Origin: Eledone cirrhosa | Taxonomy: Eukaryota | DNA length: 64,000 nt | Reading direction: 5' to 3' | Assembly (NCBI GenBank): GCA_964016885.1 | Contig: OZ024740.1 | Coordinates: 295,616,001 to 295,680,000, forward strand | Shown here: positions 8,623 to 59,191 of the stretch, in pieces | Layout: each line of letters begins with the position of its first letter | Numbering within the stretch: position 1 is the first letter of the stretch | Notes under the pieces: model-generated | What the model saw: only the letters and a program-made list of their open reading frames with translations | Databases searched by the model: none | Told to the model about the DNA's origin: nothing | Position numbers and translations under genes: made by a program

Positions 8623-8665
8623 GTCACTGAAGAGGTCACAGAATGTGTGACGAAAGAACTTTGAC
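8623..8665 (+). ncRNA. Minimal type-I hammerhead ribozyme (family B)
   Basis: GTCA-CTGAAGA-g-GTCACA-gaatg-TGTGAC-GAAA-GAAC-TT-TGAC; stems I and II fully paired. Confidence 0.85.
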
Positions 8666-8815
8666 AATATATAAACAACCATCTGGTTGTGGAACCAACC
8701 AACCAACCAACCGGAAATTTATAAATTCCTAAATTTATAAATTTATTATAATAAATTGAAGTGAAAGCAACTGGTGCGTGTGTTTCTTATTGGCAACATG
8801 ACCCTCCCAAAGTAT

Positions 8816-8861
<46 letters not shown>

Positions 8862-9199: not shown

Positions 9200-9390
9200 A
9201 TATTGTTATACTTGCGGGGCGGGGGCGGGGGGGGGGGGGGTCATATTGTTGTAATAATATTGCCAGAAATAATAACAGAACACACTCACTGTTTGGTTGG
9301 TTTTCGCTTCTGTATCTTTTATATCTCCATAATTAATTTATTTGGCAATCAATGTTTATCATTGACTGACCAACTGTTAAAAATACAGAT
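9200..9390 (-). mobile_element. Terminal fragment of PLE family A
   Basis: tattgttata..gggtcatat..tattgccaga..aataacagaacacactcactgtttggttggttttcgcttc matches 51314-51400; expanded G run. Confidence 0.85.
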
Positions 9391-9407
9391 ATAAATATAT
9401 ATATATA

Positions 9408-9707
9408 CAAAATTAAAATTAAGGGTTGTCATGTCTGAGAGACATCTATATTTGAGAGACATCTATATATGTGAGAGGTATCTATATTTGAAGTTCTAGT
9501 CAAACTTTAATTAGTTACCTACCTAGCTATGTGTGCTTACATTCTTTACAAATTATTCCCTGTGATTGTTTCATGTATTTATTTTATATATATATATGTA
9601 AATCTATTTCTAGTTGATATGTAATGCTCGGATCTAATCTGTGAGCTTATTCTACGGTGGATATGGCGCATGTCTCTCAGACATGACAACCCTTAATTTT
9701 AATTTTG
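9408..9707. mobile_element. 300-bp element with 38-bp perfect terminal inverted repeats in (TA)n
   Basis: caaaattaaaattaagggttgtcatgtctgagagacat at 9408-9445 and its reverse complement at 9670-9707; internal part repeated at about 10008-10137. Confidence 0.7.
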
Positions 9708-18453: not shown

Positions 18454-21400
18454 AGTAATAATAATAAAATTGAAGACTAAAATCCAAAGAGGGCTCGACA
18501 AGGAAAATATATATCAAATATATAAGAACCGTAGAGCAAATATTTATTAAAATAACAGATTAAAGTTTAAGCAAAGAATCGCTGCTTTCACCCTTAACGG
18601 GATCTTCTGAAACTAACAAAGTCAATCTGTAAACGCAGAACTGGATATTTCAAAAAACGTTGCAACCGGAGGAAGACAGGAAGACGATACTTTGGTTCGT
18701 GGTAACGTTCGCTGGCAAAGAACGGGAAAAAACGAATAATACGTCATTAATAGGAGCGGTGAAAAACAATTACGCGCAAAGACAGAACCACGTTTATGGT
18801 ATAAAAGAGGTCGTAGACTAATGTTCTCTTAGGTGGTGCATAGAGACGTTCTCTGGCAATGAACGAAAAAACGAAGATAATAAGTCATATGTGGAGCGTG
18901 GAGAACAATAGCACGCAAAGACAAAATCACGTAAATGGTAAGCAGAAGTCGTAGACTAAAATTCTAACTAGGAGACCAAATGAATCTCCGCTACAGAGTT
19001 AAGAACAAAGTAAATAAATACAATACAGAAGTAATAGAAACAAATAAATACATACACGCAAACAGATACGTACATACACAAGCATACGCAAAACCTTACC
19101 GTAGGTATACAAAACCACGCACATATAAATATGTGTGTGTGTGTATGCTTGTGTACAAATAAATAAATAATTATATAAACGTATATAAGTAAATAAATAC
19201 GTATATAACAAGCGCACACTCATACCTACATATAAATACACGAATGTTCGGAGACGTAAGTCAACTAAAACAAGAAGTACACATATACACACAACCACCA
19301 TACGTACGAACCTGCATACTCACGCAGACGCAAAACTCCCGTATACACATAGCCAAACCCTAAATACCAGAATATGTAAAAAGTATACGCCATAACAGTC
19401 AAATATACGTACGAGAAGGTATACATACCTTCACAAAACATACGGGTAATATATAGAGCTTCATTGTAATAAGTGGAATGGTCGTTGAAAATGCGCTCGT
19501 TGGTGCAAAGACGGGAAAGCCTCAACGGGCGGTGGTTTGTACCGTGACGATGGTCTTTTGACCATGACTAAGTGCGGACCTCGTGCTTGCGACAGGTTCA
19601 GAAAAGAACTCACAGCCTTCTTTAAAGGCTTCAACCTCTCTATACAGGTTGAGGCCAATCTCTCGGTCGTTAATTACCTCGACGTTACCCTCAATTTATT
19701 GAATGGGTTGTATTACCCGTATAGAAAGCCGAATGATACGCTTAATTACATAAGTAAGCATTCCAACCATCCTGCCAGCATAACCAAGAACCTGGTAAGA
19801 AACGTTTCGTTGAGGCTTTCCCGTCTTTCCACCAACGAGCGCATTTTCAACGACCATTCCACTTATTACAATGAAGCTCTTGCCCGAAGTGGATTTGTCG
19901 ATAAGGTAGCATTTACTGAGTACGAAAATAGACCTAGAAGAAATAGATCCCGTCGCATTTGTTGGTTTAACCCACCATATAATATGGAGGTGGCCACACC
20001 ATTAGCTAAGATCTTTCTTTCCCTTATTACGAAGCATTTTCCCCCTACACATAAATATAGTAAAATTTTTAATAGAAATACTATTAAAATTTCTTACTCT
20101 ACGACTCCTAACCTTGCACATAACATCACAGCTTCAAATTTAGCTAAACTACCTAGCCGTAGGAACACGTGCAACCCTGTAGTTAGTACTAACTGTAATT
20201 GTAGGAATCGGGCTGATTGCCCCCTATCCGGGAAATGCCTCTCTAGTAACATTGTCTACAAATGTAAGGTTGTAACACCCACGTCCCGTAGGGCCTACAT
20301 AGGGTTAACCGCCAATAGTTTCAAGCAGCGTCTCTACATGCATACCCATTCTTTTCGTTACCCTCTAAGAAGGAATATGACGTCACTTTCAGCATATATC
20401 TGGAGTCTAAAAGACAACCACACCCAATATAAGTTACACTGGGAGATCCTAGCTAGGGCTAGATTGTATAACGGAAATAAAAGACCATGTGACCTCTGCG
20501 CCGCTGAGGCCCTGGAAATACTCTACGCCACAGACCACATCTTAAACAAAAGATCTGAGGCAATTTCGGCTTGTAAACATAAATTGCACAACACTTTCCT
20601 GTATTAGAGCCCCACGTTATACCCTAACGGATAGCACGATCTATACGTGGATATTTTACGTCTTGATGTGGGAGCTAAGTATATGTTTGTTTATTCCTTT
20701 ACTTATTTGCATAGGTAACTATATATTACCCGTATGTTTTGTGAAGGTATGTATACCTTCTCGTACGTATATTTGACTGTTATGGCGTATACTTTTTTCA
20801 TATTCTGGTATTTAGGGTTTGGCTATGTGTATACGGGAGTTTTGCGTCTGCGTGAGTATGCAGGTTCGTACGTATGGTGGTTGTGTGTATATGTGTACTT
20901 CTTGTTTTAGTTGACTTACGTCTCCGAACATTCGTGTATTTATATGTAGGTATGAGTGTGCGCTTGTTATATACGTATTTATTTACTTATATACGTTTAT
21001 ATAATTATTTATTTATTTGTACACAAGCATACACACACACACATATTTATATGTGCGTGGTTTTGTATACCTACGGTAAGGTTTTGCGTATGCTTGTGTA
21101 TGTACGTATCTGTTTGCGTGTATGTATTTATTTGTTTCTATTACTTCTGTATTGTATTTATTTACTTTGTTCTTAACTCTGTAGCGGAGATTCATTTGGT
21201 CTCCTAGTTAGAATTTTAGTCTACGACTTCTGCTTACCATTTACGTGATTTTGTCTTTGCGTGCTATTGTTCTCCACGCTCCACATATGACTTATTATCT
21301 TCGTTTTTTCGTTCATTGCCAGAGAACGTCTCTATGCACCACCTAAGAGAACATTAGTCTACGACCTCTTTTATACCATAAACGTGGTTCTGTCTTTGCG

Positions 21401-31386: not shown

Positions 31387-33331
31387 ATGGACACCATACA
31401 TGAAAACATCACTGCCACGCCCCCAGGGAAAGTGATAAAGAGCAACAATTGACTCAACCTACTGAAGCTTCCCTTCTCTCGCTTTCGCATGCGATTATGG
31501 AAGTGGATTTGGCGAACAATTGTAAAAACTTGGGTAATAACCCAAACAATGGAAACAGTAAATTGAAAGAATGTATAAATTACACTGACACCAACAACAC
31601 CAACACAAATAACAAAGAAAATAACACAAACACACACAAAAGCGAAAACAGCAGCAACAATGACAAAGAAAACAACATAAATGTGAACTCAAAACACGAA
31701 AAAATGGGTGAAAACCCAAAAAACTGTATCGCAAACAACGACAACCAAAACGCAAACACCCAAGAAAACAAGAAGAACAGCAACGAAACACAAAAAATAG
31801 ATCCCACTACACGAATATCATTTGCCCAGGTCGTTAAGGAGACCGAAACTCTCACCCCAGTAGACATCAATAATGCAGCGGAATTGCGAAAAGAAGGGAG
31901 AAAACGATGAATTCACCATAATCTCCCCTAAGGATATTAAAAGAGACATGGTCCTAAGGACAATTAATTTTAGAACTATATCAAATGCGTCGAAAGAACC
32001 AGCTCAATTATCGCATAGCGAAATTGAGCTGGTGTTAAAAGACGCGTTGAAGGACATGATTTTTATTGAGAGAGGGAAGTTATATGGAGTCTGACAATTT
32101 TGATGAAGGACCAATTGGTGGCCTAAAAATACTCGGTGTCGCCAATTGCGTCCAAACAGTACACTTTCTTCCCCACCTACATGGGAAGAAAACTAAAAAA
32201 ATAACAATCTCCGGTATACACCCACATACAAATATGTGGTGCATACTAGGAGGGATACTGGACGACGAAGATGAACTCCTTGATATAGGCAAAGCCACCA
32301 GGGGACACTTTGGCGGTATAGGTTTACAGGTTCTGGTTCGAATGAAACCAGAACGTATCGCACAGATACCCCAAAGAGTGTCCCTGGAAGACTCCCAATT
32401 TATGAACATTGCAGTTGAGGGTAGGCGGCCCGCTTGCTACCTCTGTGGAGGCAGAGGTCACCTGAGGACTGCCTGTCCTCAACAAACTAAAAAACCTTTA
32501 TTGCCAACACCTCCAAAAACAACAACACCACAACAACAACAACACCACAACAACAACAACACCACAACAACAACAACAAACACAAGTCAACAAAAAACTG
32601 AACACGGACCCCCCCCCCAAAACAACTCCACAAACAAAAACACAATCACCACCACCACCCCAATAACAACAAACACAACAAGTCAACAAAAAACTGAACA
32701 CGGTCCCACCCAACCCCTCCCCACCTAAAACAACTCCAACAACATACATAACAAAACCCCAAAATATACCCCTCCCCTCCAACATGGAAGAGGATCCCTT
32801 AACGTCAGAAGACGAGGGGGAACACTTCCAAAAAATAAAGCGAAAAAAAAAAGAAAACACACCTCACCCACACAAAGAAAAATAACCCCTCCCCAAAACA
32901 CAAAAAATACAGAACAAAAACCAACAAAAATTACACAGACACAGCTATACACATACTTCAACACAAAAAATATAAAACTTGTAAACAAAATTGAACAAAA
33001 CTCTTCGGGGCAAACCGAAGGACCAAATTTCACGAGGGACACAGAGAACCCCTCTTTAAAAATGATTAAAACTCCGCTAGACATTTATATAGAACTAAAA
33101 GACAATTTTCCTGAGGACGTGGCCCCCCCCCCCCCCTGTGTAAAACCAATGAACCGCGTCCTCTTGAAAAATTTCCCCACCCCCACCCCAGACACCCACA
33201 CCACACCAAACACCCCAACTCCACCACACTCTGATGTCCCCACACCACCACAAACCACCACCCCACCCAACAACCCGTCCCTCACTCCCATGGAAGTTGT
33301 GCAGCCCGGTCCCCGGGACGTAAGGAGGTAG
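31387..33331 (+). pseudogene. LINE ORF1 (frameshifted) with zinc knuckle
   Basis: SFAQVV motif, VEGRRPACYLCGGRGHLRTACP, N/T/P-rich low complexity. Confidence 0.75.
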
Positions 33332-33365
33332 GTGCATTTTCTTTTTCTTCCCCTTCACCGCCAAC

Positions 33366-36229
33366 ATGGCTGTGTTGAGAGTAGGATGTTTGAATGCGCG
33401 TGGTCTGAGCTCACCTTGGAAGCAGGCAAAACTTCTAAATGACCTCAGGTCGTACAGTATAAATGTCATGGCTATTTGCGAGTGCAGGGTCAGCAGCGAT
33501 CGCCAGCTAGCCCCCACCTTTAACGACTTTGAGATCTATGCATCTCTCTGTCAGCCAGGGGGTGGGGTTGTCGTTCTGCTGCAAAAACACCTGGACCTCG
33601 CAACGCAGACGGTGCACTTGGACCCGGGGGGGGGGGGTCGACTGGTGGTACTAGACGTTGACAGTGGTGAAGGTGGAGCCTTTAGGCTTGTTGCCGCCTA
33701 TGCCCCCTTTGGGGCAGCAAGGCCGGACTTCTTTCAACATCTGGAGACTTTTCTAGGGACGTCCCACTCCTTGCTTTTAGTGGGGACTGGAATGGTACCC
33801 TAGATACACGTTGGGACTATGTAGGGGCATGTCCCGATAGAGGGGGGGGGGGTGTAACAGCCTCAAACGGTTAATCGGCCGATTTGACCTGGCCGATAGA
33901 TATCGACTAGATTTTCCGACTGCGCCAACCTGGGCTTGGACTAACCATAGCGGATCATCTAGGTCGTACCTAGATAGGGTCCTAGTTAGAAATAAGGATA
34001 GGGACCTACTAAGTTGTCCAGAGATGCGCATGGTTGGCTATTCAGATCACAAATTATTTACCTGCTTAGTCAACCTTGATAGAACGCATAGGCAGGGACC
34101 CGGTTACTGGAAGCTGACAGGGATCGGATTAGCGCTTTAGTTAAGGAACGGTTGACGGGGGCTATCGTCAACAGCAGGTGGTGGGGCTCTCTCAAGAGAG
34201 AGATTAGGGTAGTCTCGATAGGTTTTAGTAAGGAATTAGCCTCAGATGGGAATAGGAAGGAAATGGAGTTGGTAGATAGAGTAGAAGAGGCGATTAGAAG
34301 CGGCAAGGTAGCCAGAGTGCTAGCGTGGAGAACGGCCTTAGACCAGTTTTTCGACGCGAAACACGAAGGCTGCGTTGTCAGAAGCAAAATACGTGCTCTA
34401 AGAAACGAGGGGGTCAAAGCTGTTAGCTGGGCCCGCGTGACAGAAGCCAAAAGTGGGATTAAATCCACTATCTGGTATTTGAAGGACCAGGATGGACGGG
34501 TGATCCTTGAACCTGGACAGATGTGTGAGGCCTTTCAAAGGCACTTTGCACGACTGTTCGGGAGGGGCGGGGGCCGGAGGGGGATGGGGAATTCGGTCCA
34601 TACCTCGACGGCCTACCGCGTCTTCGAACGAGGAGGCGAAGTCCTGCGAAAAGCCGATTTCAGCAGCTGAAATAAGGGACGTGGGGAGCCAATGCGGAAA
34701 ACGCAATCCCCGGCCCCCGATGGTCTTCCATACGAACTTTATGTAACGATGCCGACTTTTTCTCCGATCTCCTCGAGGCGGTCTACTGCAACTGGCAACA
34801 GAACGGGAGAATTCCCTGTTCTGTGACCAAGGGCGTAGTCTCGCTAGTGAGGAAGGACGAGAACAGGGGGGGGGGGATGAAATAAGTAATTTCAGGCTCA
34901 TAACTCTGCTAAATGCGGAGTTAAAGATTTTGGCCAAGGTGTTAGCAAAGAGGTTGGCGCTTGTCGTGGGCAACCTGGGTGGGAGATGCGCAGACATGCG
35001 CTATCCCGTCCAGGTCCATTCACGACAACCTCCACCTCATGCGATACATCATAGAGGGGGTAGGGAATGAACCCGGCTTTGGTGGGGCCCTGATCAACTT
35101 GGATCTATCTAAGGCGTTCGATAGTGATAACCATGGTTACCTGGATGCGGTGCTAGCGGCGGCAGGTTTCGGACCCGTTTTCAGGGGCTGGATTACTGCC
35201 ATGCACAGCAGCCGCATCTGCTCGAGGGTCAAGGTGAACGGCTACCTCTCGGAGCCGTTCCAAATCGCGCGGTCCATCCGACAGAGGTGTCATCTCTCCT
35301 CCCTTCTGTATGTGCTGGCTCTCGAGCCACTGCTGCGGAATTTGGAGTTGAGAACCGAGATTGCGGAAAGCGGTGTCGGCCTACGCCGATGACGTGACAG
35401 TAATGGTGTCGAGTACCTCGGAAATCGGGGCGATCGGCACCTTACGTTTGTGAGGCGAGCCTTTCCGAGACTCGTCTCGCTTCTGGGTCAAGTAAAGACC
35501 GAGAAACCTGGGCGCCTGGCACACGGAGTGTGCTCAGGCGCTCATGGCTCCCTGGCAGGCGGACCCAGCTATCAGTGGAGACTCCACCTCGACATTCTAT
35601 AGAGAGTTGGTCAGCAGCAGGTGCGACGACGCCCTCGGAGAAGCCCTAGGAATGGAGAAGGAAGAACTGGCCATCCTGTTCAGTAGGACATTTGGCCCGG
35701 GCCCAATGGACGACTTTCAGCGGTCCCTGGACTGGCAGTGCTACCGTGGGGCTCTGCCCGTTCGAGACAAGCTCTACAGACATGGGCGCCCGGGTAGGGA
35801 CCCTTCGAAAAAGATCTGTCCGAGATGCGTGCGCGACGAGGAAACCGTCTCGCACGCATTGGTACACTGCCCGGACGTTGCCGACCTGTGGGGCTATGTG
35901 GAACGACTGCTGTCACGGGTGGGACCAATCCGGTTGACCACCGAGTCCATTATTACGATCAAACCGCCTCCCCCCTTCAAAAACGAAGGAGAAGCGGTCT
36001 TCCTCTGTGTAATAGCCATGGTGAAAGAGGTATGGTGGGCGCGTTTGAAAGGGCTGAGGTCGGGCACCTTTCTCTCCGGCCAACAACTGGTCTTTTCTTC
36101 CGATATCATTTCGGAAGAAGGATCAGGATGGGGAGAGAGGTACTCCACCCCAGCCAGTTTTATGAAAGGTGGGTGAAAGTGGCGAGAATGGCCCGTATGA
36201 ATGGGCCTTCTCTCTATATCAGCCTGTAG
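33366..36229 (+). pseudogene. LINE ORF2 (APE endonuclease, RT, zf) disrupted by frameshifts and stops
   Basis: LRVGCLNARGL, SYLDRV, SDH, DLSKAFD, LS.LLYVLALEPL, YADDVTV, CPRC..DEETVSHALVHC. Confidence 0.88.
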
Positions 36230-38359
36230 GTGAAAAAGATGGAAGAACAAGGGAGCACCCTTTCTCTGTGCACCTGAGGAGAAGGGTTGCACACTTTCTC
36301 GGCGGTGTTTGCGACCCCCAAAACGCCTCCTCCCTATTGAGGACTTTATTGTTAATTTTATATTTGTTATTTGTTTTTTACTCGTTCTTTTGTGTAACCC
36401 CCCCCCTTGTATTTGTCCCCTTCTTTTGTGTACTCGTGGCAATAAATAGAAATTTATCTATCTATCTATGCATAATCAAAATTATAAATTTATATTTATA
36501 CCTACATATATTTTGGCAGAACATTTAAATGTATACGTGTATATACATGAATACATAGAATTTCAAATTTACATTTACATTGCTTTTATTATATCACGCC
36601 AGTTCAAAAGCGCGCTAAGTCATGACAATCTCATCATATGTTGGTCATATAATTCTAATACTATATTATCCAATGTATTGTAAGATATAACATTTTTTCT
36701 TGGGGCTGTAGGATGCAATTTAAGGGAAAATTGACTGTTATTCTTAGCAGGTAGAGTGATTATTAGCGACTCTTTGGCTCTTTTATGCATATATAGATAG
36801 ATACAACATGTGCCTAACCTATCAGAGGTAAAAAGAGAATTGCAACTTATATCATATATTATATAGAATATAGTTAATACATCTCGGTGTTTTTGTTGTT
36901 GTTGTTGTAAGCCTTTTAGCATCCTTCAAAGAGGATGTTAAAGAGTTATGGCCATTTTATCAAATCGAATCTAATAAAGGTTTTGTTACCAAAATCTAAC
37001 TACCGAATTATTTTCAATAAGGGTCTTATCTCTTATGTTTAGAAACATATTTGTTGCAAGCTGCCATATCATTTTTGTTTTCTATCTCCCATACGACTAA
37101 ATATGTAAGTAATCTACAGCAACTTTTACGTGGTCGACAGAAAAGCAAACAAATTTCTCTTAAATTACGTATAGCCATCTTTAAACATGATAAAATGGAT
37201 GATGTAGTCCGAGACACATTAGTCCTGAAAAAGAAAAAGGCTTGATGTTCATTATTTAAATATCTTTTCTCTAAATGGACACTCCTAATAACTATTTGAG
37301 GACTTCGGCCAAAAGAATGCTGTTGCAAATGACAGCCAAATATTTGACAATGGCTGGCACGAGAACCTCCTAAAGGACATGCCTGCATACAGATTTCGTC
37401 TGTATCTCATCTCTTAGATTGACAGTTTCCGGTCAATATGCTCTAACAAAGTGCTGTATCCAATACATACGCTCTCAACGGTGATGTACTTCAGAGTCCT
37501 ATTTTGACTCCTGCATTCTTACTTCTGTATAATTGCGTGTGTGTTTGCGAGCGAGAGAGAAAGAGAAAGAAAAAGAGAGAGAAAGAGAGTGAGGGGGGGG
37601 GGGGGGGAGTATGCGTGCGAGTTGGCAGCACTACCTGAACATAGAGTCCACTTAATAACTGGTGAATATGATATGACACCAAAGAGTCTAAAGTCTAAAG
37701 AGCCAACTGCTACTCGATCAGTGTTTACGTCTAACATAAATTGTTGTGAGCGACGTCTTTATTTTCCAACACTTTATTTATAGACTGATGTAAACATACC
37801 ATCTGTATATACAATACCTTTGTAGTCAGAAAAAAGAGAGATCAGCCCGATTAGTTTCAATCCTGTATTGAGACTATCAGCGACTGAGTACCATCTTTAA
37901 CCGCCTACACATTACTAACTACATACATACATACATACATACATACATACATACATACATACATACATACATACATACATACATAAATTCATACATACAT
38001 AATGGCTGCCCCCTCGTTATCGAGTATGGCCATTGCACAATATACCATTATTAACAATTATTAATTAATTCTATCGTGCAATGCCTGTGCGTAAAGATTC
38101 TTTTATAAAGACTGTGCACTGAGCCAATTCCATTCTCTGAGCGACAGTAGCTATAACCCGAAAAGAAGAAAGATCATCATCATCGGTAACTACTGAGCCG
38201 CAGGTTTTATGTCGGAGTTATCCCAGTTACATGAGTTGCCTTCTCCTAGAAGAATGCCCAGGTCTAACTGCGCAATCGAGTATCCAGCCCGATTATTTCT
38301 ATGTCCCCGCGCATATACATACACATGCATACAATATATATATATACATACATATATAT

Positions 38360-38728
<369 letters not shown>

Positions 38729-38990: not shown

Positions 38991-39299
38991 ATCAAAAGTG
39001 TTCCTTATATTGCTCGGAAAGAGTTTTTGGAGTTAAATCCACATCAAGTTTCATTGCTCGCAAAAATAGCTTGTTTTGATTTTGCAGCAGGTCAAGGGAG
39101 GTAACTCTGTCCGGTGTTAGGGCAGCCTTTCCCGGACAATTTTTTTTTCTTTTTTTGCCGCATCTGTTTGTCTGAGGCTGGGTCTGGTATGCAAGGATTG
39201 TTTCCTGGGTGTTATTTTGCAGCGCCTGCCCGCCGGGGTGTTAAGACTTGTTGCAGGGAGATCCGGTGTACGGTTTCACTCTTCATCCTTAACCCATCT

Positions 39300-41999
39300 G
39301 AAGAAAGATTTTTTTAAGCGATGTGTACAACTTATCGCTGTTTCAGCTCTGCTGTTGAGGAGCTTGTGGGGTTCAGTTATGATGTGGTAGAGCTCCATGA
39401 GGCAAAGATCGCATTTCCTCTTGAAGTTGTACGGTGCAGCCCTACCGACAATCTCCCAGTGCGTGGAGAAGCTGATGTTTAAGTCCTTTAGTAATGTGAT
39501 GTAGTCCGCGAGCGAAGTGGAGTGCCTTAGTTTTCTATTTGTGAAAGAGTGGAGATGTGTTCGAAACCTAATTTTGAACGGGCCGGAGGTAGCCCCTATA
39601 TAATGTTTAACGCTATTGTGGCTAGTAATAGTGCATCTATATATAACCCTATCAGTCAAGCAGTATCCTCTAAGGGGGAAGCGTCCTCTGTCGCGGCAGT
39701 TGCAATTTCTGTCGCGGTTCCGTCTATTTCCCACGGTAAGGCTATCATTGTTGCTGCCTACGTTGTTACCTACGCTATCGCAGCTGTCATTAGCACCATT
39801 ACAACCCACAGCACGCGGGTGGTGCGATTGTTATTCCGCACGTCATGTCCTGCATGTTCCCCAGTCATTTCGCGGTTATGCTGGTTGCGTCTGCGGGTGC
39901 CGTTGTCAACACTATTGGATGCTGCCAGGGAGTTGTTAAGGCCGATATAGTTATTGTCAGGTGTAGGTGCGTCTGTGTCGAGGTGCTGTGTCTTGGTGAT
40001 CTTACAGTGGTTCGTTGTTCCTATGATGTCTGCTAGGTTAGGAGTAGTAGAGAGGGATATTTTTATATTGTTCCTATTAAGAATTTTTCTATACCTATGG
40101 TTGGGCGGGAAGTTCTTCTCTAAGGCTTCGAAGAACATCCGGGGTAAGTTGGAGGCCACACTCCGAGAGTAGGTGGGGGGAGGGGACCATAGGACGTTAA
40201 GGTGGCGATTACGTGTCCTTGTATTTTGCTACGGGTGGTTCCATCTAGGTGACCGCTCTTATGTGTGTTAATGCGCAGTCGCCCGTTCGGTGCCCCTTTC
40301 ACTTTATGCTCGGGTGCACTCTTCCTACCTCTTCCATATTTATGTACACGAAGATGTTGGTTGGAAGGCGTTGATAGTAGGCCGTCGCCTTTGTTGGTTT
40401 TGTAATAGGGGAACAGTTCGAGTAATCTACAGTGTTCACCGTCGCCGGGGTCGTGATCTTTAGTGCGGTTATCTATTCTATTATATCCGACTTCAACGAG
40501 GTCGCCGCGTGATCGGTTATAGGTATGGCTTACTATAACGTTCGTTTTATGAGGGGGGTCGTTTCTAGAGCTAGCGTTAGGGATGTAGGAAATTCCTCGG
40601 TTAAAGTCGGTGCTTATCAAGGCCCTATTGTAGTAATCTGCCGCTTGGTTGAAGATATCCTCATTGGCGGATAGCCTCGAGATTCTATGTGAGATACTAT
40701 AGACTATGGAGTTGAGAGTCTGCTTAGGGTGGTTGGAGGCATAATTAATATAAGAGAGGCACTCTCCAGGCTTATGGTATGGCTTGTATAAGCCCGTACT
40801 CAACTCCAGGGTCACGTCCAGAAAGTTGACAACCCTGTGGTTGAGGTTCATAGTTACGGATAGGCCGTATGACTTGAAGAACCTGTGTATATGTTTGTTA
40901 AGGTTCTCTATCCTACGGGGGCTACGGTTCTTAACGGTAAACAGGGCGTCGTCCCTATATACACCTCCTTGTAGGGCCGGTATCTCTTCCCTAAGCTTAT
41001 GTAGGAGGTATATCCCGACCAGGTCAGTTGCTTGCGCTGAGTCACTGAACCCCATCGTGACATTGAAGTTATCAGGACGGTTGGTTCTGGTCCAGTGGGA
41101 GCCTTCGAACTGGATAATGGATCTACGCGCCGCTAGAATTATGTCTATTTCTTTTTTAGTGAGGCTAGTGTTAGATCTAGCTAAGATAAGTGCCTTATTT
41201 AAGAGTATGGGGGAGATAGAGGCGTAGTAACTATCTATATCAAACTGGATGAATTTCAAGGTGGCTTTATCCGGCAACTCGGTGAATCAATTTATGACCT
41301 GGTCGGTGTTGCCCCAGAGGCAGACCTTAGCCTTTCTATTAAGCTCCAGTAGTACTCTGTCGAGGATCACTTTACTAATCTTACCTATATCTGATGTAAA
41401 GGGGCATATTAGTCTAATAGAGGGGCTTTCATTAAAGTTATATTAGTGATCCTTAAGAGAGAATTTAGGCGTACGGGTTATCGTACTTTTCTATTTCTAA
41501 GCTGGTGACTATATCCTTCCCTACTCTATTTATGTCATTTAAGGTACTAGAGGGTGTCTTTTTGTAGTCTTTGTGTAGTTCCTTATAGATGAATTTGTTT
41601 ATACTTACTCGCGTCCATCTTGTACAGCTTTTTGGCTTTGTCGGAGGTGACGAAGAGGTGCGGGTCATTCTTGATCTTAGTTATTAGTGTATCAAGGGAC
41701 GTTAAGAATGGATTGCTGCATTGGTGTTTCTTTCTGAACTTAACGTTTTTGATCATTTTCAGCAGGTCCTCTTCAAAGGAGTCCAGTAAGGTGTTGTGCG
41801 GTGGGTTTCGGTATGTTTTGAAGCCATACCTCTCTTTGGGTTCAGGAAGGTTACGGGTGTTCTTATCCAGGTGGTAGGCCTTCCATCTGACTCTCCGTAT
41901 AAACGAATTAGTAGCGTCTATAAGCAGTGTAAGGTAGGTTTTTCTGCTGGGTAAGGGGATACACTTGAGAGACATGGATAACGGCTGGTTCTCCAACAT
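39300..41999 (-). pseudogene. PLE RT + GIY-YIG ORF broken by several frameshifts
   Basis: SLKCIPLP, FIRRVRWKA, SDK, FIQFDIDSYYASIS, TMG.SDSA, GVYRDD, SNHP, CNC, VIY..YIG, CDLC. Confidence 0.9.
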
Positions 42000-42263
42000 A
42001 ATGGCAAATAAGGTGAGATACTCTACAAAAGGAGCACGGTAATACAGTATTTACGTATCGAGAAAGAGAAAAAAATGGGAGGATAGGTGATACATATAGT
42101 TATTTGCCAAGTAGCGTATGCCAAAGGTGCTCGATACTAGTGCCGGCAGTATTAAATATTCGAAGTGTTAATATTTAGTGGGCTAGAGAGTTAGCAGAGC
42201 GTAAGCACGTGGGAAAGTAAAAAAATCGGAGAATAGACCGTTAAAACATGTTTATTTAAAATA

Positions 42264-43609: not shown

Positions 43610-45498
<1,889 letters not shown>

Positions 45499-49263: not shown

Positions 49264-51263
49264 TGAACAGACAACGACCATCACATTTATTCTATATCGA
49301 AGACTATATTGTCCATTATACAACCAAACACTCCGTCTTTGGCTCAATACTATTCAAAGTTCTTTAGTAATAGGTCAAACCCCTTTGAGCAGACCTATAA
49401 TCAAAGACCTTCCAACAATGATCATTACGCTGTACACCCTATCAATCACTATACCATCATTTTTAGAATTTGGGGAAGATTTCGCATGTATTTCTTGCAG
49501 ATTGAGTGCTTATATGGGGGTTCCCTTGAAAGGTGATTGGTAAGAGTATTCACAAAAGTTGTACAGCGTGGAAACTGACTTTAGGCCTGAATTTGAGAAA
49601 TATTGGGCGTTTTAAAGTTGCATTATGCACACACAAAGGCACATTTTCACTCAATGGTTTTACTTTCTGGGGTAACCTACGCTTGGTGTCAAGCACCTGC
49701 CAGTGAGTGACAGTGAAAAACTTCTTTCATATGTACGCTGTGCCGTTTGCTGTACAAGCTGTAGCACAACCTTTTGTAAACTGCTTCAGGTGTTGCAAAT
49801 CAGACACACAAATAAAAATTATAACCACAAAAAAGAAAAAAAGAAAGAAAAAAAGCAAACACCACAATGTGTAACATATATACACAGACACTAATGCAAA
49901 CTATATTGAAGTGGAAAGAAGAGAAATATATTTTGAGAAAGAAAAAAAAGCATTTTCTCAAATGCTGCAATGTTGTTGAAATCCATAGAAATTCGAATAA
50001 AAAGCTGAGTAACTATAACATAAGCAGTTATTCAATTGAACGAAAACTATTCAGAATCTCCAGAGCAGAAAAGTTTTTTTATTGCAGTATAATTTCTTTT
50101 ATTCACTCGATTTTCTAATATTATTCATTTGCTTTTTGCTTTATATTCATTTTAAATCTATATCAATCTTTTGGGGTCTTAGATTCGTTATTTCTATTTA
50201 TTCTATCTACATGTTTATTACACTCTACATAGAACATAGTTTCTTTTTTATTCCACTAAAACTTAGTTAAATACTAAATATGTTGCACCTTTGGCTGTGG
50301 CTTGTAATCATTTATAAATGTCTGTTGTTTTATTTTAACGAAAGGAAATGAAGTGTTGATAGGGTGAAAACTTCAGTATGTGTTGTAACAGCTATTTTTT
50401 CAGGAATTTTACACCACGGGGATGGGGTATGGAATATCTTTCAACTAACAAACATGAACATTATTTTCAATATTTACAAGTAGATATGTTTGTCACCAAT
50501 AAATAAATCAAAACGAAATAAAAGAATAAATATTTGTATAATTATGTTTATGATTACTTTAAAAAACTTAAAAGTTGATTGGGAAATAGCTTTAATTTTA
50601 GAGTTGTGTGTGTTGTAATAGAACAAATATGTACAAGACAATCTGTATCCAACAACAACCTATTGAAAAAATAACTTTGCAATTCTCATCGATTCTTTCA
50701 GTACACGTAAATTTTCAGACTAAATTTCTTAAATGTTAAATATAAATTGATTTGTCTTTTATTGATTTTTTATATTTTGTACAGCAGTTTCAAAGATATT
50801 CAGTTCGATTTTCTAATTCAATAGTTCTGGTCTGGTCTAGTCTGCTCTGGTGTCTTCCTATTTTCATTACTGAGGATCGGAGACCATGGACAATCTATAT
50901 GTCCATGATTCTCGTCGGGAAAAATATTGACATTGGAAGCCGGCTATCGAGCCACAGCTTATCCGCCTTCATAACAAGGGTAAATCCAACAGCCTCTTGA
51001 GAGATTGTCAGCTGACTAAGGAATCCCATTTACCCCAGCTTTGATATCGGGTGATCTTTCTCCTAGACATACTGCCAGCCAAGGCTACCGAGTTCTGTCT
51101 CTTACGCCTCTAGTGTTCTTGGAAAAAAACAAGCTATTCCCTTTCAATTTCTGTAAAGTATAAAGGTCTTTCTCAGAGGAAGTTAATTACAAATAAATTT
51201 TATGGAAAATAAATATATCTTTGAAACTCGTTTAGCTAAATCTGAGTTATGATTACACACACT

Positions 51264-51320
<57 letters not shown>

Positions 51321-51524
51321 ATATTTGGGGAGGGTCATATTTGCGTAATATTGCCAGAATTAATAACAGAACACACTCACTGTTTGGTTGGTTTTCGCTT
51401 CTCGCTGTCTTTTATATATATATATCTGCGATCTAACTTACTCGGTCCTCAATGTTGCCATTGACTGACCGGCGGTCAAAAATAATACAGATACAATATA
51501 GACAAACACATATATATATAGTTT

Positions 51525-51566
51525 ACATAAATCTTTCGTTGCACATCTGCAACATCGTCAGTGGTG
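51525..51566 (-). ncRNA. Hammerhead ribozyme (family A, downstream pLTR)
   Basis: CA-CTGACGA-t-GTTGCA-gatg-TGCAAC-GAAA-GATT-TA-TG. Confidence 0.78.
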
Positions 51567-51833
51567 TTATATTCATTGTTCCTCCTGTTGTGTTGTATGT
51601 CTACGCCATTTTTTTTGTTCAGTCTGTCTATATATTTATTTATTTATTTGCTTGTTTGTTTATCTTATTTTATTTTGTCTTCTTTGCGCATGCGTTTGCG
51701 TGTGTGTATAGTGTTATGTGTGATGTGTGACTAGTGTGTATCGTGTTGTGTCTGCTGGGTGACTAGTGTGTGTTTATGTGCTTGTGTATGTATTTATTTA
51801 TCTTATTTTATTTAATTTAATTTACTTATTTAT

Positions 51834-54800
51834 TTATACTTCTCTTAGGTCAGTGTTGTTTGTTTGGGTGTTGTTGTTGTTCCACTCATTCTTTCTGTTT
51901 AGCTTTGGTTTTCTAATTTCTATTTCACTGGCCTCTCTGATTTGCCTATCTGCTGGGTCATTCCTATGTTTAGATATTATTCTAATTTCTATGTTGTCTA
52001 TGTTACCGTCATGATGTTGTCTAGCATGTTCGTATAGTACTGACCCGTTTTTTCGTCCTTTTAGTTCCCCCCAGTGTTGGTCTATCCTTTCACCTATGCT
52101 ACGAGCTGTCTCACCTATGTATGTTGTTGTCGTGTTTCTGCAAGTACCCTCTGTACATCTTATGCTATAGACTACGTTTCTAGTTTTACAGTTTATCCGG
52201 GGGTTCACCTTACATATGATACATTTCCTATTGGTACAGTGGGTTTTCTTAAAAGGGTAGGTTTTGCTGATCAGGGATTTTATGGTGGTTCCTGGCTTTT
52301 CTACCACCTTTATTTTTAAGTGGGTCTTTCTCAGGGCCTTTCTACACTGGTTAGCTAATTTCCCTCCAGGGGTGGCGTCCACAAACATGACACTCTGATA
52401 TCTCTGGTTGTCGTACCATGATGTGGCCTTCCCTATCTTATGTCTAGCCCTATCTAAGCTATTCCATGATTTGCTCCTGTATAGTGGGCAAATTCCTTTC
52501 ATGTCCAGTTCTATGAGGGTCTTATACTTTTCCATGGCTCCTTCGTATACTCTGACTCTGTCTCTTTGGTTGTAGCCAGAGAACTGCATGCGGTTGATGA
52601 AGTGTTGGATGTGTCCTTCCATTTCTGTTGGGTCGCACATGCTGGACACATTCTTCATCACTCGTACCAAATCTGCGATCAGAATATTAAACTTAGCACT
52701 ACTGGACATTGCTGAGTTTTTGAGTATCAGGTATTTGGAGGCCATGGGTTTAGCATAGTGTGAGTGGAGAATTTGGGCTCTCTCGTCTATAGTGTTAATC
52801 CAGAGTTCTGTGTCTAATACAGGTAGTCTATTGTTAGGGTGTTTGGAAGGGAAGTCTATAGTTACAGTTATACTCTGGTGTATGGAATTAGCTATCTGCT
52901 GGATGCTTTCCATCGTGCTACGTTCTAAATCAAACTTGTTAGTGCTCTCTAGTGGGGGTGTTCTTATAACTATATTGATATCGTCTACATAACGAGAGTA
53001 CATGATGAGGTCTATGGAGCTTTCATTAAGGAGATCTTTAAGTCTCCTTTCCCACCATACCATGAAAAGGTTGGCAACATCGCCAGCTATGCTGACGCCG
53101 ATGGCTGCTCCCTCATTTTGGGTGTAGATTTTCTCATTGAACTTAAATATGTGGCCCTTTAGGGTAGTTTTGATACTAGCCCCTATTGCATGTGCGACCA
53201 TTTTTCTTACCTGATCAGTGTTTTGGGGGGTCCGTATAGCTTTGGTCCACCCAATCCACCTTCCTATGGGAGTCTTTTTAGCCATTGAGGTTATGGTGGG
53301 GGGTCTACCTCTTATAGGTCTACTAGGGCAGAAACATCTAAGGTCATGGCTGTCTAGGTAGTCAGTGTCGTAGGTAAGTCTAAGTAGGAGGCCTAGTTCG
53401 TCTGTGTCGACGTCGCAGAACTCCACCTCACTCTCAATGATCATCTCCACACATCTTTTCACAGCAAAATCAATGTTAATGGATGGGTACAGTGACACCA
53501 CATCCATGCTGCCTATTATGCAGTTGGATAGGCTCCTGTTTTTGTTGCACTCACTGATTCTGCTGAGGAGGTCCTCTGTACTTTCACATACATCTGGGGA
53601 CATCTTGATTATGGGGCGTATAACCATTGAGAGGAAGTAGGAGATCCTGTAGTTGCTAGCTATATTAGCTCCGCATACAGGTCTTGTTGGTGGTCCTATT
53701 GTCGGGTCGTCGACTGTCTTGTGGTCTTTGCGGAGCCCATACAAGGGTGGTATGCCATTGTTAGACGCCTGGAAGTTGTTGGCAGTGCGTCTGCTTGGCT
53801 TTAGGATGTCAGTCCACATCATCATGTGAGCGTTGAGGATTTTTTCTCTCCCATCGTGTGTTAGTTGTGCAACTTCGCTCGTGTTGGTGATGTGGGGTTG
53901 CATTGCCTCGATGTAGTTCGGCATGCTATCTATTGACATCCTACCAGACTTATCTGTGGGTAGACACACTACCTCACCATCCCTTGTGCGCTGCTTGAGG
54001 CTAACCAAGCCTTCTACAGGTTTTATCCCAAGTTGTTGGGCCTCTGGTCTGCTCTGTCTCATAGTGTACCTGTCTACTACTTGTCTAATCTTATTTCTAG
54101 CTATGGTGAACTGTGCCTCCGTCTCGTCATCTATTTGTTGTGGTATGCAAACTCTTTTATTAAAGGGTAACCTCGTAGGATAGATATTACCCATCTTATA
54201 TGTTTTGTCAGCTGGGTTGAAAAATAGTTTCTCTAAGGGGTTGTCGTTATTTCTATCGTCATAGTTGTGTGTGTTGCTATTATTGTTATCATGGTGGTTG
54301 TTGTTGTTTCTATCCTTAGCATTAATATTATTATTGTTATGATTGCTAGATGTATTGTTGTTTACTTCACCGTTATTGTTGTTGTTGTTACTGCTATTTC
54401 TACCATTGTGGTTGTTACTATTATTATGTTTCTTGTTTTTGTTGATGTTGCTACATGTACTATTTCCATTATTACCACTGTGGTTATTGTTGTTGTTGTT
54501 GTTCGTATTGTTACCGTTATTACTACTGTGGTCACTGTTGCTGTGTCTGTGGTTAACGTTTCTATTATTATTATTATTGTGGTTGTTGTTGTTCTGTCTA
54601 TCGCTAGTATTATTACCATTATCACTATTTCTCACTTTCCTGCCATTGTTATGGTTATGGCTGTTATTTCTATACCCAGAGTTATTGTTTATATTACTAC
54701 TACCGTTATTATTGTTGTTGTTGTTTACCTTTGCATTCCAACGTATTTTTGTGAAACACTTTTCCAGCTCCGTTTTGCATTCCATAGGATTAATCTTTTT

Positions 54801-55466
54801 GTAGATGGCAAATTTTGGTGGTAACTTTAGGATTTGTTGTTCTTGTTCACTGATTAAAGTGTTCCCATAGATATTTACTGTGTGGTCATTGGTAAATTCT
54901 TCCGGTAGTTTTACATCACTCATACGGATGTTGTCGATGTTATCTGGGTATTTTTGAGAATATTCGATTTTCCTTTCTTGTAGTTTTTTCTTATTCATCC
55001 ATTCTAATTTCTTCTTGAAATGCCTACAGCATTCGTTTTGAGCATATTTCGTTTCGCGTCGGATGACGCTCATGAAGTCATCTCTCTCGTTTGCTGTGAT
55101 GAGATTTCGGATTTCCTTACCGTTGATGCGTTTTTGTCTGTAGAGTGCGTTGACTTTTGTGTATGTTGTTCTTTTCATATTAACTGTTATTGTGTGTTTT
55201 AGCCGTTCAGCTTGTGTTTTGTTCAATAATAAATTATTTACTTGTTTTGATATGTTTGTTGTGTATGTTTTGGAGGAAACACAGTGTTTTAAGAAGCGGA
55301 TTTGTTCTGTTGTTATTGTAGTTTTTATATAACAGAAAACAGTGTCTTTCAATAACCTTTCAGCTTGGCACAAGCTAATGCCATAGCGGCGATGAATTAG
55401 TTTTGCGAGGTTTTTTATATGAAATCGTGTGTCGAAACAGATATTGTTATATTTGGGGAGGGTCAT
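51834..55466 (-). CDS. Intact PLE polyprotein, 1210 aa: N-terminal domain, Asn-rich insert, RT, C-terminal GIY-YIG endonuclease
   Basis: PTDKSG, RPV, SMDVVSLYPSI, Q.EG.AIG, SRYVDDI, VLD, C....C..C linker, VVY..YIGET.R...R...H, RQIREA, PKLNRK.EW. Confidence 0.95.
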   Translation of the reverse strand: MTLPKYNNICFDTRFHIKNLAKLIHRRYGISLCQAERLLKDTVFCYIKTTITTEQIRFLKHCVSSKTYTTNISKQVNNLLLNKTQAERLKHTITVNMKRTTYTKVNALYRQKRINGKEIRNLITANERDDFMSVIRRETKYAQNECCRHFKKKLEWMNKKKLQERKIEYSQKYPDNIDNIRMSDVKLPEEFTNDHTVNIYGNTLISEQEQQILKLPPKFAIYKKINPMECKTELEKCFTKIRWNAKVNNNNNNNGSSNINNNSGYRNNSHNHNNGRKVRNSDNGNNTSDRQNNNNHNNNNNRNVNHRHSNSDHSSNNGNNTNNNNNNNHSGNNGNSTCSNINKNKKHNNSNNHNGRNSSNNNNNNGEVNNNTSSNHNNNNINAKDRNNNNHHDNNNSNTHNYDDRNNDNPLEKLFFNPADKTYKMGNIYPTRLPFNKRVCIPQQIDDETEAQFTIARNKIRQVVDRYTMRQSRPEAQQLGIKPVEGLVSLKQRTRDGEVVCLPTDKSGRMSIDSMPNYIEAMQPHITNTSEVAQLTHDGREKILNAHMMMWTDILKPSRRTANNFQASNNGIPPLYGLRKDHKTVDDPTIGPPTRPVCGANIASNYRISYFLSMVIRPIIKMSPDVCESTEDLLSRISECNKNRSLSNCIIGSMDVVSLYPSINIDFAVKRCVEMIIESEVEFCDVDTDELGLLLRLTYDTDYLDSHDLRCFCPSRPIRGRPPTITSMAKKTPIGRWIGWTKAIRTPQNTDQVRKMVAHAIGASIKTTLKGHIFKFNEKIYTQNEGAAIGVSIAGDVANLFMVWWERRLKDLLNESSIDLIMYSRYVDDINIVIRTPPLESTNKFDLERSTMESIQQIANSIHQSITVTIDFPSKHPNNRLPVLDTELWINTIDERAQILHSHYAKPMASKYLILKNSAMSSSAKFNILIADLVRVMKNVSSMCDPTEMEGHIQHFINRMQFSGYNQRDRVRVYEGAMEKYKTLIELDMKGICPLYRSKSWNSLDRARHKIGKATSWYDNQRYQSVMFVDATPGGKLANQCRKALRKTHLKIKVVEKPGTTIKSLISKTYPFKKTHCTNRKCIICKVNPRINCKTRNVVYSIRCTEGTCRNTTTTYIGETARSIGERIDQHWGELKGRKNGSVLYEHARQHHDGNIDNIEIRIISKHRNDPADRQIREASEIEIRKPKLNRKNEWNNNNTQTNNTDLREV

Positions 55467-55652
55467 ATTTGCGTAATATTGCCAGAATTAATAACAGAAC
55501 ACACTCACTGTTTGGTTGGTTTTCGCTTCTCGCTGTCTTTTATATATATATATCTGCGATCTAACTTACTCGGTCCTCAATGTTGCCATTGACTGACCGG
55601 CGGTCAAAAATAATACAGATACAATATAGACAAACACATATATATATAGTTT

Positions 55653-55694
55653 ACATAAATCTTTCGTTGCACATCTGCAACATCGTCAGTGGTG
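55653..55694 (-). ncRNA. Hammerhead ribozyme (family A, upstream pLTR)
   Basis: Identical motif 4128 bp from the first. Confidence 0.78.
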
Positions 55695-55729
55695 TTATAT
55701 TCATTGTTCCTCCTGTTGTGTTGTATGTC

Positions 55730-55823
55730 TACGCCATTTTTTTTGTTCAGTCTGTCTATATATTTATTTATTTATTTGCTTGTTTGTTTATCTTATTTTA
55801 TTTTGTCTTCTTTGCGCATGCGT
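55730..55823 (-). promoter_or_regulatory. Candidate pLTR promoter: NRF1-like and YY1-like motifs
   Basis: CGCATGCGCA followed by AAAATGGCG upstream of the hammerhead and ATG; both motifs conserved in family B. Confidence 0.4.
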
Positions 55824-55961
55824 TTGCGTGTGTGTATAGTGTTATGTGTGATGTGTGACTAGTGTGTATCGTGTTGTGTCTGCTGGGTGACTAGTGTGTG
55901 TTTATGTGCTTGTGTATGTATTTATTTATCTTATTTTATTTAATTTAATTTACTTATTTAT

Positions 55962-58900
55962 TTATACTTCTCTTAGGTCAGTGTTGTTTGTTTGGGTGTT
56001 GTTGTTGTTCCACTCATTCTTTCTGTTTAGCTTTGGTTTTCTAATTTCTATTTCACTGGCCTCTCTGATTTGCCTATCTGCTGGGTCATTCCTATGTTTA
56101 GATATTATTCTAATTTCTATGTTGTCTATGTTACCGTCATGATGTTGTCTAGCATGTTCGTATAGTACTGACCCGTTTTTTCGTCCTTTTAGTTCCCCCC
56201 AGTGTTGGTCTATCCTTTCACCTATGCTACGAGCTGTCTCACCTATGTATGTTGTTGTCGTGTTTCTGCAAGTACCCTCTGTACATCTTATGCTATAGAC
56301 TACGTTTCTAGTTTTACAGTTTATCCGGGGGTTCACCTTACATATGATACATTTCCTATTGGTACAGTGGGTTTTCTTAAAAGGGTAGGTTTTGCTGATC
56401 AGGGATTTTATGGTGGTTCCTGGCTTTTCTACCACCTTTATTTTTAAGTGGGTCTTTCTCAGGGCCTTTCTACACTGGTTAGCTAATTTCCCTCCAGGGG
56501 TGGCGTCCACAAACATGACACTCTGATATCTCTGGTTGTCGTACCATGATGTGGCCTTCCCTATCTTATGTCTAGCCCTATCTAAGCTATTCCATGATTT
56601 GCTCCTGTATAGTGGGCAAATTCCTTTCATGTCCAGTTCTATGAGGGTCTTATACTTTTCCATGGCTCCTTCGTATACTCTGACTCTGTCTCTTTGGTTG
56701 TAGCCAGAGAACTGCATGCGGTTGATGAAGTGTTGGATGTGTCCTTCCATTTCTGTTGGGTCGCACATGCTGGACACATTCTTCATCACTCGTACCAAAT
56801 CTGCGATCAGAATATTAAACTTAGCACTACTGGACATTGCTGAGTTTTTGAGTATCAGGTATTTGGAGGCCATGGGTTTAGCATAGTGTGAGTGGAGAAT
56901 TTGGGCTCTCTCGTCTATAGTGTTAATCCAGAGTTCTGTGTCTAATACAGGTAGTCTATTGTTAGGGTGTTTGGAAGGGAAGTCTATAGTTACAGTTATA
57001 CTCTGGTGTATGGAATTAGCTATCTGCTGGATGCTTTCCATCGTGCTACGTTCTAAATCAAACTTGTTAGTGCTCTCTAGTGGGGGTGTTCTTATAACTA
57101 TATTGATATCGTCTACATAACGAGAGTACATGATGAGGTCTATGGAGCTTTCATTAAGGAGATCTTTAAGTCTCCTTTCCCACCATACCATGAAAAGGTT
57201 GGCAACATCGCCAGCTATGCTGACGCCGATGGCTGCTCCCTCATTTTGGGTGTAGATTTTCTCATTGAACTTAAATATGTGGCCCTTTAGGGTAGTTTTG
57301 ATACTAGCCCCTATTGCATGTGCGACCATTTTTCTTACCTGATCAGTGTTTTGGGGGGTCCGTATAGCTTTGGTCCACCCAATCCACCTTCCTATGGGAG
57401 TCTTTTTAGCCATTGAGGTTATGGTGGGGGGTCTACCTCTTATAGGTCTACTAGGGCAGAAACATCTAAGGTCATGGCTGTCTAGGTAGTCAGTGTCGTA
57501 GGTAAGTCTAAGTAGGAGGCCTAGTTCGTCTGTGTCGACGTCGCAGAACTCCACCTCACTCTCAATGATCATCTCCACACATCTTTTCACAGCAAAATCA
57601 ATGTTAATGGATGGGTACAGTGACACCACATCCATGCTGCCTATTATGCAGTTGGATAGGCTCCTGTTTTTGTTGCACTCACTGATTCTGCTGAGGAGGT
57701 CCTCTGTACTTTCACATACATCTGGGGACATCTTGATTATGGGGCGTATAACCATTGAGAGGAAGTAGGAGATCCTGTAGTTGCTAGCTATATTAGCTCC
57801 GCATACAGGTCTTGTTGGTGGTCCTATTGTCGGGTCGTCGACTGTCTTGTGGTCTTTGCGGAGCCCATACAAGGGTGGTATGCCATTGTTAGACGCCTGG
57901 AAGTTGTTGGCAGTGCGTCTGCTTGGCTTTAGGATGTCAGTCCACATCATCATGTGAGCGTTGAGGATTTTTTTCTCTCCCATCGTGTGTTAGTTGTGCA
58001 ACTTCGCTCGTGTTGGTGATGTGGGGTTGCATTGCCTCGATGTAGTTCGGCATGCTATCTATTGACATCCTACCAGACTTATCTGTGGGTAGACACACTA
58101 CCTCACCATCCCTTGTGCGCTGCTTGAGGCTAACCAAGCCTTCTACAGGTTTTATCCCAAGTTGTTGGGCCTCTGGTCTGCTCTGTCTCATAGTGTACCT
58201 GTCTACTACTTGTCTAATCTTATTTCTAGCTATGGTGAACTGTGCCTCCGTCTCGTCATCTATTTGTTGTGGTATGCAAACTCTTTTATTAAAGGGTAAC
58301 CTCGTAGGATAGATATTACCCATCTTATATGTTTTGTCAGCTGGGTTGAAAAATAGTTTCTCTAAGGGGTTGTCGTTATTTCTATCGTCATAGTTGTGTG
58401 TGTTGCTATTATTGTTATCATGGTGGTTGTTGTTGTTTCTATCCTTAGCATTAATATTATTATTGTTATGATTGCTAGATGTATTGTTGTTTACTTCACC
58501 GTTATTGTTGTTGTTGTTACTGCTATTTCTACCATTGTGGTTGTTACTATTATTATGTTTCTTGTTTTTGTTGATGTTGCTACATGTACTATTTCCATTA
58601 TTACCACTGTGGTTATTGTTGTTGTTGTTGTTCGTATTGTTACCGTTATTACTACTGTGGTCACTGTTGCTGTGTCTGTGGTTAACGTTTCTATTATTAT
58701 TATTATTGTGGTTGTTGTTGTTCTGTCTATCGCTAGTATTATTACCATTATCACTATTTCTCACTTTCCTGCCATTGTTATGGTTATGGCTGTTATTTCT
58801 ATACCCAGAGTTATTGTTTATATTACTACTACCGTTATTATTGTTGTTGTTGTTTACCTTTGCATTCCAACGTATTTTTGTGAAACACTTTTCCAGCTCC

Positions 58901-59143
58901 GTTTTGCATTCCATAGGATTAATCTTTTTGTAGATGGCAAATTTTGGTGGTAACTTTAGGATTTGTTGTTCTTGTTCACTGATTAAAGTGTTCCCATAGA
59001 TATTTACTGTGTGGTCATTGGTAAATTCTTCCGGTAGTTTTACATCACTCATACGGATGTTGTCGATGTTATCTGGGTATTTTTGAGAATATTCGATTTT
59101 CCTTTCTTGTAGTTTTTTCTTATTCATCCATTCTAATTTCTTC

Positions 59144-59148
<5 letters not shown>
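55962..59148 (-). pseudogene. Second ORF copy, N-terminally truncated, with a +1 frameshift in a T run near 57968-57974
   Basis: Same protein split into 422-aa and 673-aa ORFs; T7 here versus T6 at about 53840. Confidence 0.9.

Positions 59149-59191
<43 letters not shown>

Follow-up and report, generated by a model that had tools for sequence, protein, structure and literature searches.

A partial tandem of a Penelope-like element (PLE) lies on the minus strand of the window that we analysed, a 64-kb stretch of DNA from Eledone cirrhosa, where it extends head-to-tail over 1.90 units. We consider it probable that a PLE with a C-terminal endonuclease (EN) inserted here recently as a partial tandem, likely in one event in which reverse transcription began at ATG+26 in the element's own RNA at a nicked (TA)n tract, and that the element likely represents an unnamed lineage whose reverse transcriptase (RT) is set apart by an insert of 70 residues in the fingers. 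The layout itself, with a tandem, an ATG near the 3′ end, and one hammerhead per unit, is already known for PLEs and adds little. What is unusual, judging from the sequence and a structure model, is the protein, in which a conserved module of around 70 residues sits in the RT between motifs A and B.

Layout of the tandem insertion

51269..51316, no strand: (TA)24 tract targeted by the element, at its 3′ end; the last 4 nt of the tract are common with the element end
51313..51338, minus: 3′ terminus, the first 26 nt of the ORF (short end), from the sequence and family ends
51313..55440, minus: unit A, the downstream full unit of 4128 nt, from comparison of both units
55441..59148, minus: unit B, the upstream 5′-truncated unit of 3708 nt, matching 3707 nt of unit A
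57968, no strand: single extra T in unit B, the sole difference between the units, from their alignment
59148..59183, no strand: (TA)18 tract where the 5′ truncation falls, from the sequence
51834..55466, minus: intact 1210-aa ORF with an N-terminal region, an Asn-rich tract, a telomerase-like RT, a Cys linker, and, at the C terminus, a GIY-YIG EN, from translation, motifs, and a model

The sequence-only reading had described two units that were identical except for one indel in a T run, and this is what we found: over 3707 nt there are zero substitutions, and the only indel falls in a T7/T8 run (57968 in unit B, 53840-53846 in unit A). The left end of the insertion consists of the ATG plus 23 nt followed by (TA)24, which bears out the earlier placement of the start codon 26 nt from the 3′ terminus; its terminal letters are ATAT, which leaves a margin of a few nt in the placement of the 3′ end. 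The right end is cut at 59148 and passes into (TA)18. It is also correct that the ORF is complete only across position 55441, which it spans, while the ORF of unit B has no ATG and is shifted in frame by the extra T. The same reading stressed that the junction at 55441 has no TA spacer, and that is literally so, but none would be expected, because element sequence is continuous there and the position is best taken for an internal point of RT initiation. A ligation joint at 55441 was considered and rejected, the position likely being an internal RT start site comparable to the family ends at ATG+26. By analogy with Penelope (PMC2377424), unit B likely supplies the promoter and leader, that is, the pseudo-LTR, for the intact ORF.

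The proposal that the insertion is recent is supported, as a very young one, and so is the derivation of both units from one source. At letters where the window departs from the majority of other sequencing runs, units A and B agree in 19 of 19 tested, these letters having been chosen among 40 listed rows and the compared runs possibly representing other individuals or species. Such shared letters would fit one template, and they would also fit an assembly duplication.

Termini and copies of the family

55383..55441, minus: "tail" interval from ATG+26 to +84, between two family termini, from contig loose ends and ends in the window

Eight family ORF starts are present in the window, five of which stop at around ATG+26 into TA repeats and two at around +81, while one (55466) reads through. 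The idea that the position of the ATG is a peculiarity of the tandem copy was rejected, the ATG+26 end being a feature of the family. In each of two inverted insertions, at 7502-8823 (97% arms) and 38360-38627 (95%), one end is short and the other long. These palindromes belong to a sister subfamily, are joined at their 5′ truncations, and end at +26 and +81, which points to a pair of RT reactions that started on opposite strands of a single target. Short 5′-truncated family copies with the +26 end occur at 44859-45406 (a 578-nt copy) and at 9205-9411, the latter with a poly-G expansion within the ORF start. The window also holds broken Hydra-type PLE remnants, recognised by motif, at 19489-20607 (plus) and 39276-42050 (minus), for which two homologues were found, and a broken LINE at 31404-36457 (plus), which we take from its motifs to be L1/Tx1-like.

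Contigs of four sequencing runs were compared with window positions 50900-55900. In run X1, 33 contigs have (TA)n loose ends at 55383 (+84), and in run X6 such ends were found at +71 and +64, in one contig each. Summed contig depth, a rough measure that gives no copy number, drops from 3′ to 5′ along the ORF in X1, X3, and X6. The left flank has a single-copy-like depth of 10-13 in X1, which covers this flank only to 51251, and because depth falls from 3′ to 5′ while the flank stays at this level, we regard the family as high-copy and 5′-truncated. Depth and end peaks in X22 reflect restriction sites, since this run is RAD-seq. One X6 contig joins ORF position +151 (window 55316) to pseudo-LTR-like sequence. 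Among related metagenome loci of 3.0 to 4.7 kb, 6 of 14 assemble with terminal overlaps, like head-to-tail units. One longer relative (L001, 1-6055) has an open frame of 1632 codons whose N-terminal part contains a 105-nt tandem repeat, and 936 nt of the ORF start recur at the 3′ end of this relative.

These ends resemble what has been published for PAc (Poseidon, Anolis carolinensis) and for Penelope of Drosophila virilis. Frangieh et al. 2024 reported, in the part of their paper available to us, that PAc begins the reverse transcription of a tandem RNA within the ORF, at two sites bounding a "tail" (PMC11167929). The two-site end pattern seen here is this published signature, and the bounds of the tail are likely two RT initiation sites. 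[quoted passage not shown] The partial tandem with a pseudo-LTR and an optional tail, a feature of EN-containing PLEs, is present here. The start codon near the 3′ terminus and the partial tandem do not stand as a discovery, since both are described for Penelope and PAc in PMC2377424 and the available part of PMC11167929.

Hammerhead motifs and the RNA template

55655..55693, minus: minimal type I hammerhead motif of unit B, by pattern, with predicted cleavage between 55656 and 55655
51527..51565, minus: minimal type I hammerhead motif of unit A, by pattern

The hammerhead cores start at 55689 and 51561 and are 4128 nt apart, exactly one unit, and the predicted cut would leave a 189-nt leader ahead of the ORF, in agreement with the earlier description of a one-unit spacing that holds a leader of around 190 nt and the full ORF. 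In the tandem element, stem II of the motif has 6 bp, stem III has 2 bp, including a G-U pair, and stem I has 2 bp; for the sister subfamily of the window, stem I is 4 bp long and stem II shows two compensatory pairs. Hammerheads also lie upstream of the ORF start in two relatives (L002 and L023), and the ORF start of L002 resembles that of the tandem element. The hammerhead in the pseudo-LTR, another feature of EN-containing PLEs, appears here as a minimal core with a compensatory stem II and predicted cleavage. Rfam at E≤10 gave zero matches of any kind in the unit, hammerheads included, so that the motif is known by pattern only, and over the 64-kb window it gave only microsatellite-driven miRNA matches. 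In another relative (L004, 1-61), an inverted copy of the hammerhead region lies at the 5′ end of the contig. The further claim that the ribozyme defines the monomer is weakly contradicted: both insertion ends and position 55441 lie off the ribozyme site, no family end in the window maps to it, and depth in X1, X3, and X6 does not fall across it.

We propose that the element protein would nick a (TA)n tract and bind an uncut RNA of more than one unit in the region of the ORF start, with reverse transcription starting 26 nt into the ORF or, as the inverted pairs suggest, at +84 on the other strand. Copying would run back through the leader, the hammerhead, and the ORF, enter a second round, and stop at 59148 after 7.8 kb. 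The template would most simply be a transcript that reads through a tandem source array; a circle would yield identical DNA, and we favour read-through because the only biochemical test, on PAc, found cleavage to be dispensable. With a promoter supplied by the upstream unit, the tandem insertion would itself be a possible source copy.

It seems rather unlikely that hammerhead cleavage and ligation instead produced a 4128-nt circular RNA, around which the RT would have travelled 1.9 times from ATG+26, but several observations are in line with it: there is one hammerhead per unit, at exactly one unit's distance, stem II carries compensatory pairs in the sister subfamily, the motif precedes the ORF in L002 and L023, and both units look copied from one template. 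Such circles would also account for the regeneration of pseudo-LTRs, and Cervera and De la Pena proposed them in 2014 as templates for more-than-unit PLE copies. The same work (PMC4209133, available part) describes minimal hammerheads around 3 kb apart around a PLE ORF and measured low activity, however, and stem I has only 2 bp in the subfamily of the tandem element. Furthermore, in the available part of PMC11167929, PAc hammerhead mutants insert normally in vitro, and none of the reads stops at the site. The DNA alone is the same for a circle and for read-through.

A hammerhead-cut linear monomer copied with template jumps at the cut ends, the second option of the sequence-only reading, is very improbable. 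The unit from cut to cut does contain the leader and the whole ORF, but we disfavour this template because, if initiation is at +26, a jump would be required for every copy of more than 215 nt; moreover, both units are seamless at the cut site, the 578-nt copy at 44859-45406 crosses it, and the rough depth measure shows no drop there. It is also improbable, although less so, that the second unit is an assembly artefact, with two young copies joined or one looped. Zero substitutions alongside a single homopolymer indel would fit such an error, as would the very high copy number of the family and the fact that no run contig spans the locus. Nevertheless, the flanks are unique, with (TA)n at both ends of the insertion, the 5′ truncation is clean, long microsatellites nearby are resolved in the assembly, and partial tandems make up around 30% of Penelope copies (PMC2377424). 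A single insertion copied from an uncut, more-than-unit RNA is the reading that we find most probable.

The protein and its fingers insert

54246..54725, minus: Asn-rich low-complexity tract, aa 248-407, with Asn at 81 of 160 residues, from composition
53223..53426, minus: conserved insert of around 70 aa between RT motifs A and B, aa 681-748, from spacing, profile, and model
52980..52991, minus: RT catalytic motif C, YVDD, aa 826-829, by motif
51897..52238, minus: short CX4CxxC linker and GIY-YIG EN with CCHH, aa 1077-1190, from motifs and by eye against Fig. S2 of PMC8557442

The identification of a PLE with an intact ORF holds, as a telomerase-like RT and a GIY-YIG EN are found in the 1210-aa frame. 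A structure model of residues 408-1210 has a pLDDT of 88, and telomerases are the top 14 structural matches of this model (best Z 15.6, rmsd 3.6, 275 aligned). The ORF matched no Pfam family, while weak GIY-YIG matches were found in two of the nine family homologues scanned; the GIY-YIG motifs lie at aa 1100-1190 of the same ORF as the RT. A PDB sequence search with the ORF returned two RTs (E 0.057 and 0.17). The first homologue search yielded 86 proteins, 80 family members and 6 canonical PLEs, the best canonical match being a Nematis-like nematode protein (E 1e-23). Long matches within the family have 28-68% identity over most of the query, and the nearest named sequence, at 68%, is from Octopus vulgaris. 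The 160-aa Asn-rich tract precedes the RT, and an O. vulgaris homologue (P0001) likewise begins Asn-rich. Another O. vulgaris gene model (P0078), named "dynein regulatory complex subunit 6-like", contains a 74% identical piece of the RT and is probably mis-joined. The family profile found 2,884 clusters at E≤1e-30, counted without regard to the insert, and the top clusters in a protein cluster atlas are unnamed or labelled as generic PLE.

The EN follows the RT in 63 of the 71 family proteins with a detectable motif C, with an EN-like motif ahead of the RT in one, and 59 of those 63 have the Cys linker. Motif B of the family is G-G/A-x-I-G, the DK motif is DKS, and the only CxC of the ORF sits inside the RT insert (aa 711).

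The spacing from motif A to motif B is 130 aa in the tandem element. It is 126-140 in 67 of 80 homologues, those in which both motifs were found, and 125-161 in 51 of 146 further family representatives, many of which are fragments, against 51-62 in four of six canonical PLEs and 55-62 in 92 of 119. Nine positions of the insert are conserved in at least 90% of 54 sequences, and a model of the insert alone has a pLDDT of 91. A profile of the insert finds 78 of 80 family proteins and 96 of the further 146, in part because of how it was built, and none of 127 non-family proteins. Compared with solved structures, the insert model gave no Foldseek match at E≤0.001, and the best VIA Z among 48,161 chains was 4.6, with no TERT or telomerase IFD among the structural matches listed.

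PLE RTs are the sister group of telomerase, and the available part of PMC8557442 reports a long fingers insertion for telomerase, Naiad/Chlamys, and some Coprina, not for PLEs with a C-terminal EN. Hand counts from its Fig. S1 give A-to-B spacings of around 60 for the C-terminal-EN clades, 62-87 for Naiad, up to around 122 for Chlamys, and around 105-150 for TERT. The insert occupies the same place as the telomerase IFD and has a similar length, but because no solved structure matched, TERT included, it is IFD-like by position only, a likeness from which homology does not follow. The absence of a structural match does not establish a new fold. The insert is rich in conserved Arg, Gly, and Pro, and we would guess that it may contact RNA or DNA.

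Placement among PLE clades

The sequence-only reading had called the element Naiad-like, and this does not stand, because the EN is C-terminal, after the RT, whereas Naiads have an N-terminal EN and, in the available part of Craig et al. 2021 (PMC8557442), no canonical hammerheads. Naiad membership was likewise rejected on the DK motif, which is DKS and not DKA, and on the CxC, which is not found between EN and RT. Naiad and Chlamys, both with an N-terminal EN, do share with this family the targeting of (TA)n, presence in octopuses, and an insert where the IFD lies, with hand-counted spacings of around 62-87 aa in Naiad and up to around 122 aa in Chlamys. Hydra elements likewise have a C-terminal EN, (TA)n targets, a hammerhead, an RW motif in the N-terminal region, and aquatic hosts; they lack CCHH and an IFD, have a CxCX5C linker and DKT, and are shorter than 3 kb. 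Membership in Hydra was rejected, since the tandem element has CCHH, CX4CxxC, a long insert, and DKS in a 4.1-kb unit. Poseidon has neither the Cys linker nor the fingers insert, and the definition of Penelope/Poseidon differs from our element in the linker and in the spacing (51-59 against 130). The Cys motif and CCHH of Neptune are present, but the linker is short where that of Neptune has the long form, and Neptune, which lacks an IFD, has a spacing of 55-62 against 130. The features of Nematis are shared, by eye against Fig. S2: an RT, a short CX2-5CxxC linker, a GIY-YIG EN with CCHH, and a similar EN motif. Nematis has no insert, however, with a spacing of around 63 aa (hand count, Fig. 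S1 of the same partly available source) and of 62 in the Nematis-like P0081, its motif B and DK motif differ, and RT identity to one Nematis-like protein is 21%.

A tree was built from 17 family cores (17 of 22), 14 Neptune-like, 3 Poseidon-like, and 1 Nematis-like protein, and 7 EN-less proteins, the last drawn from the weak matches L056-L080, which are mostly EN-less PLE-like RTs with canonical spacing. The reference groups were assigned by motif and not by name, Naiad, Chlamys, Athena, and TERT are absent, and the main tree omits the insert columns and two long rows. The family forms one side of a branch of around 1.2 changes per site with support of 100/100, and a quick mixture-model tree that included one long-branch Hydra-like row gave the same separation. 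With these motif-assigned groups, the trees separate the family from the Neptune-like and Poseidon-like groups and from the Hydra-like row, but nesting in a Neptune-like subgroup is not rejected (AU test, p 0.055). A sister position to all Neptune-like proteins is rejected at the borderline (p 0.04), and one to the single Nematis-like protein is not rejected (p 0.23), although the free tree separates the two. Mean identity of the family to each canonical group is 19-21%, against 22-28% among those groups.

On sequence grounds, with the named clades compared by motif and description, the protein family is a fair candidate for an unnamed PLE clade. It is possible, if less than evenly so, that instead of a clade of equal rank it is a rapidly evolving branch of Nematis (or Neptune) that acquired an insert, or that Repbase already holds it as generic Penelope. 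The short linker and EN resembling those of Nematis, the best canonical match to a nematode protein, and the two AU tests that do not reject such positions all agree with an offshoot, but the lower identity to every canonical group, the differing motif B and DKS motif, and the long, well-supported stem point away from it.

Significance

A search of openly accessible papers, which did not extend to Repbase, Dfam, or bioRxiv supplements, turned up no PLE that pairs a C-terminal EN with such an insert. Four family motifs are absent from the supplement of Craig et al. 2021, a weak comparison in which long sequences were covered to 400 characters only, and Repbase may hold family members. The available part of a July 2026 preprint lists eight PLE clades, and a 2026 paper on Octopus vulgaris repeats, also available in part, reports 336 recently active Penelope-like insertions with clades unnamed (PMC13282606). 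A bolder reading, to which we give slightly less than even weight, would make the element the type member, intact and active, of a ninth PLE clade found widely among marine eukaryotes, combining a C-terminal GIY-YIG with a telomerase-sized, structurally new fingers module that would raise processivity to the point where a circular 4.1-kb RNA is copied nearly two times over, the octopus copies marking RT starts at +26 and +84.

With its intact, very young ORF, two mapped termini, and a microsatellite target, the locus suits the in vitro assay published for PAc. A large family with a fingers insert would be informative about the number of times that this module arose and about its function.
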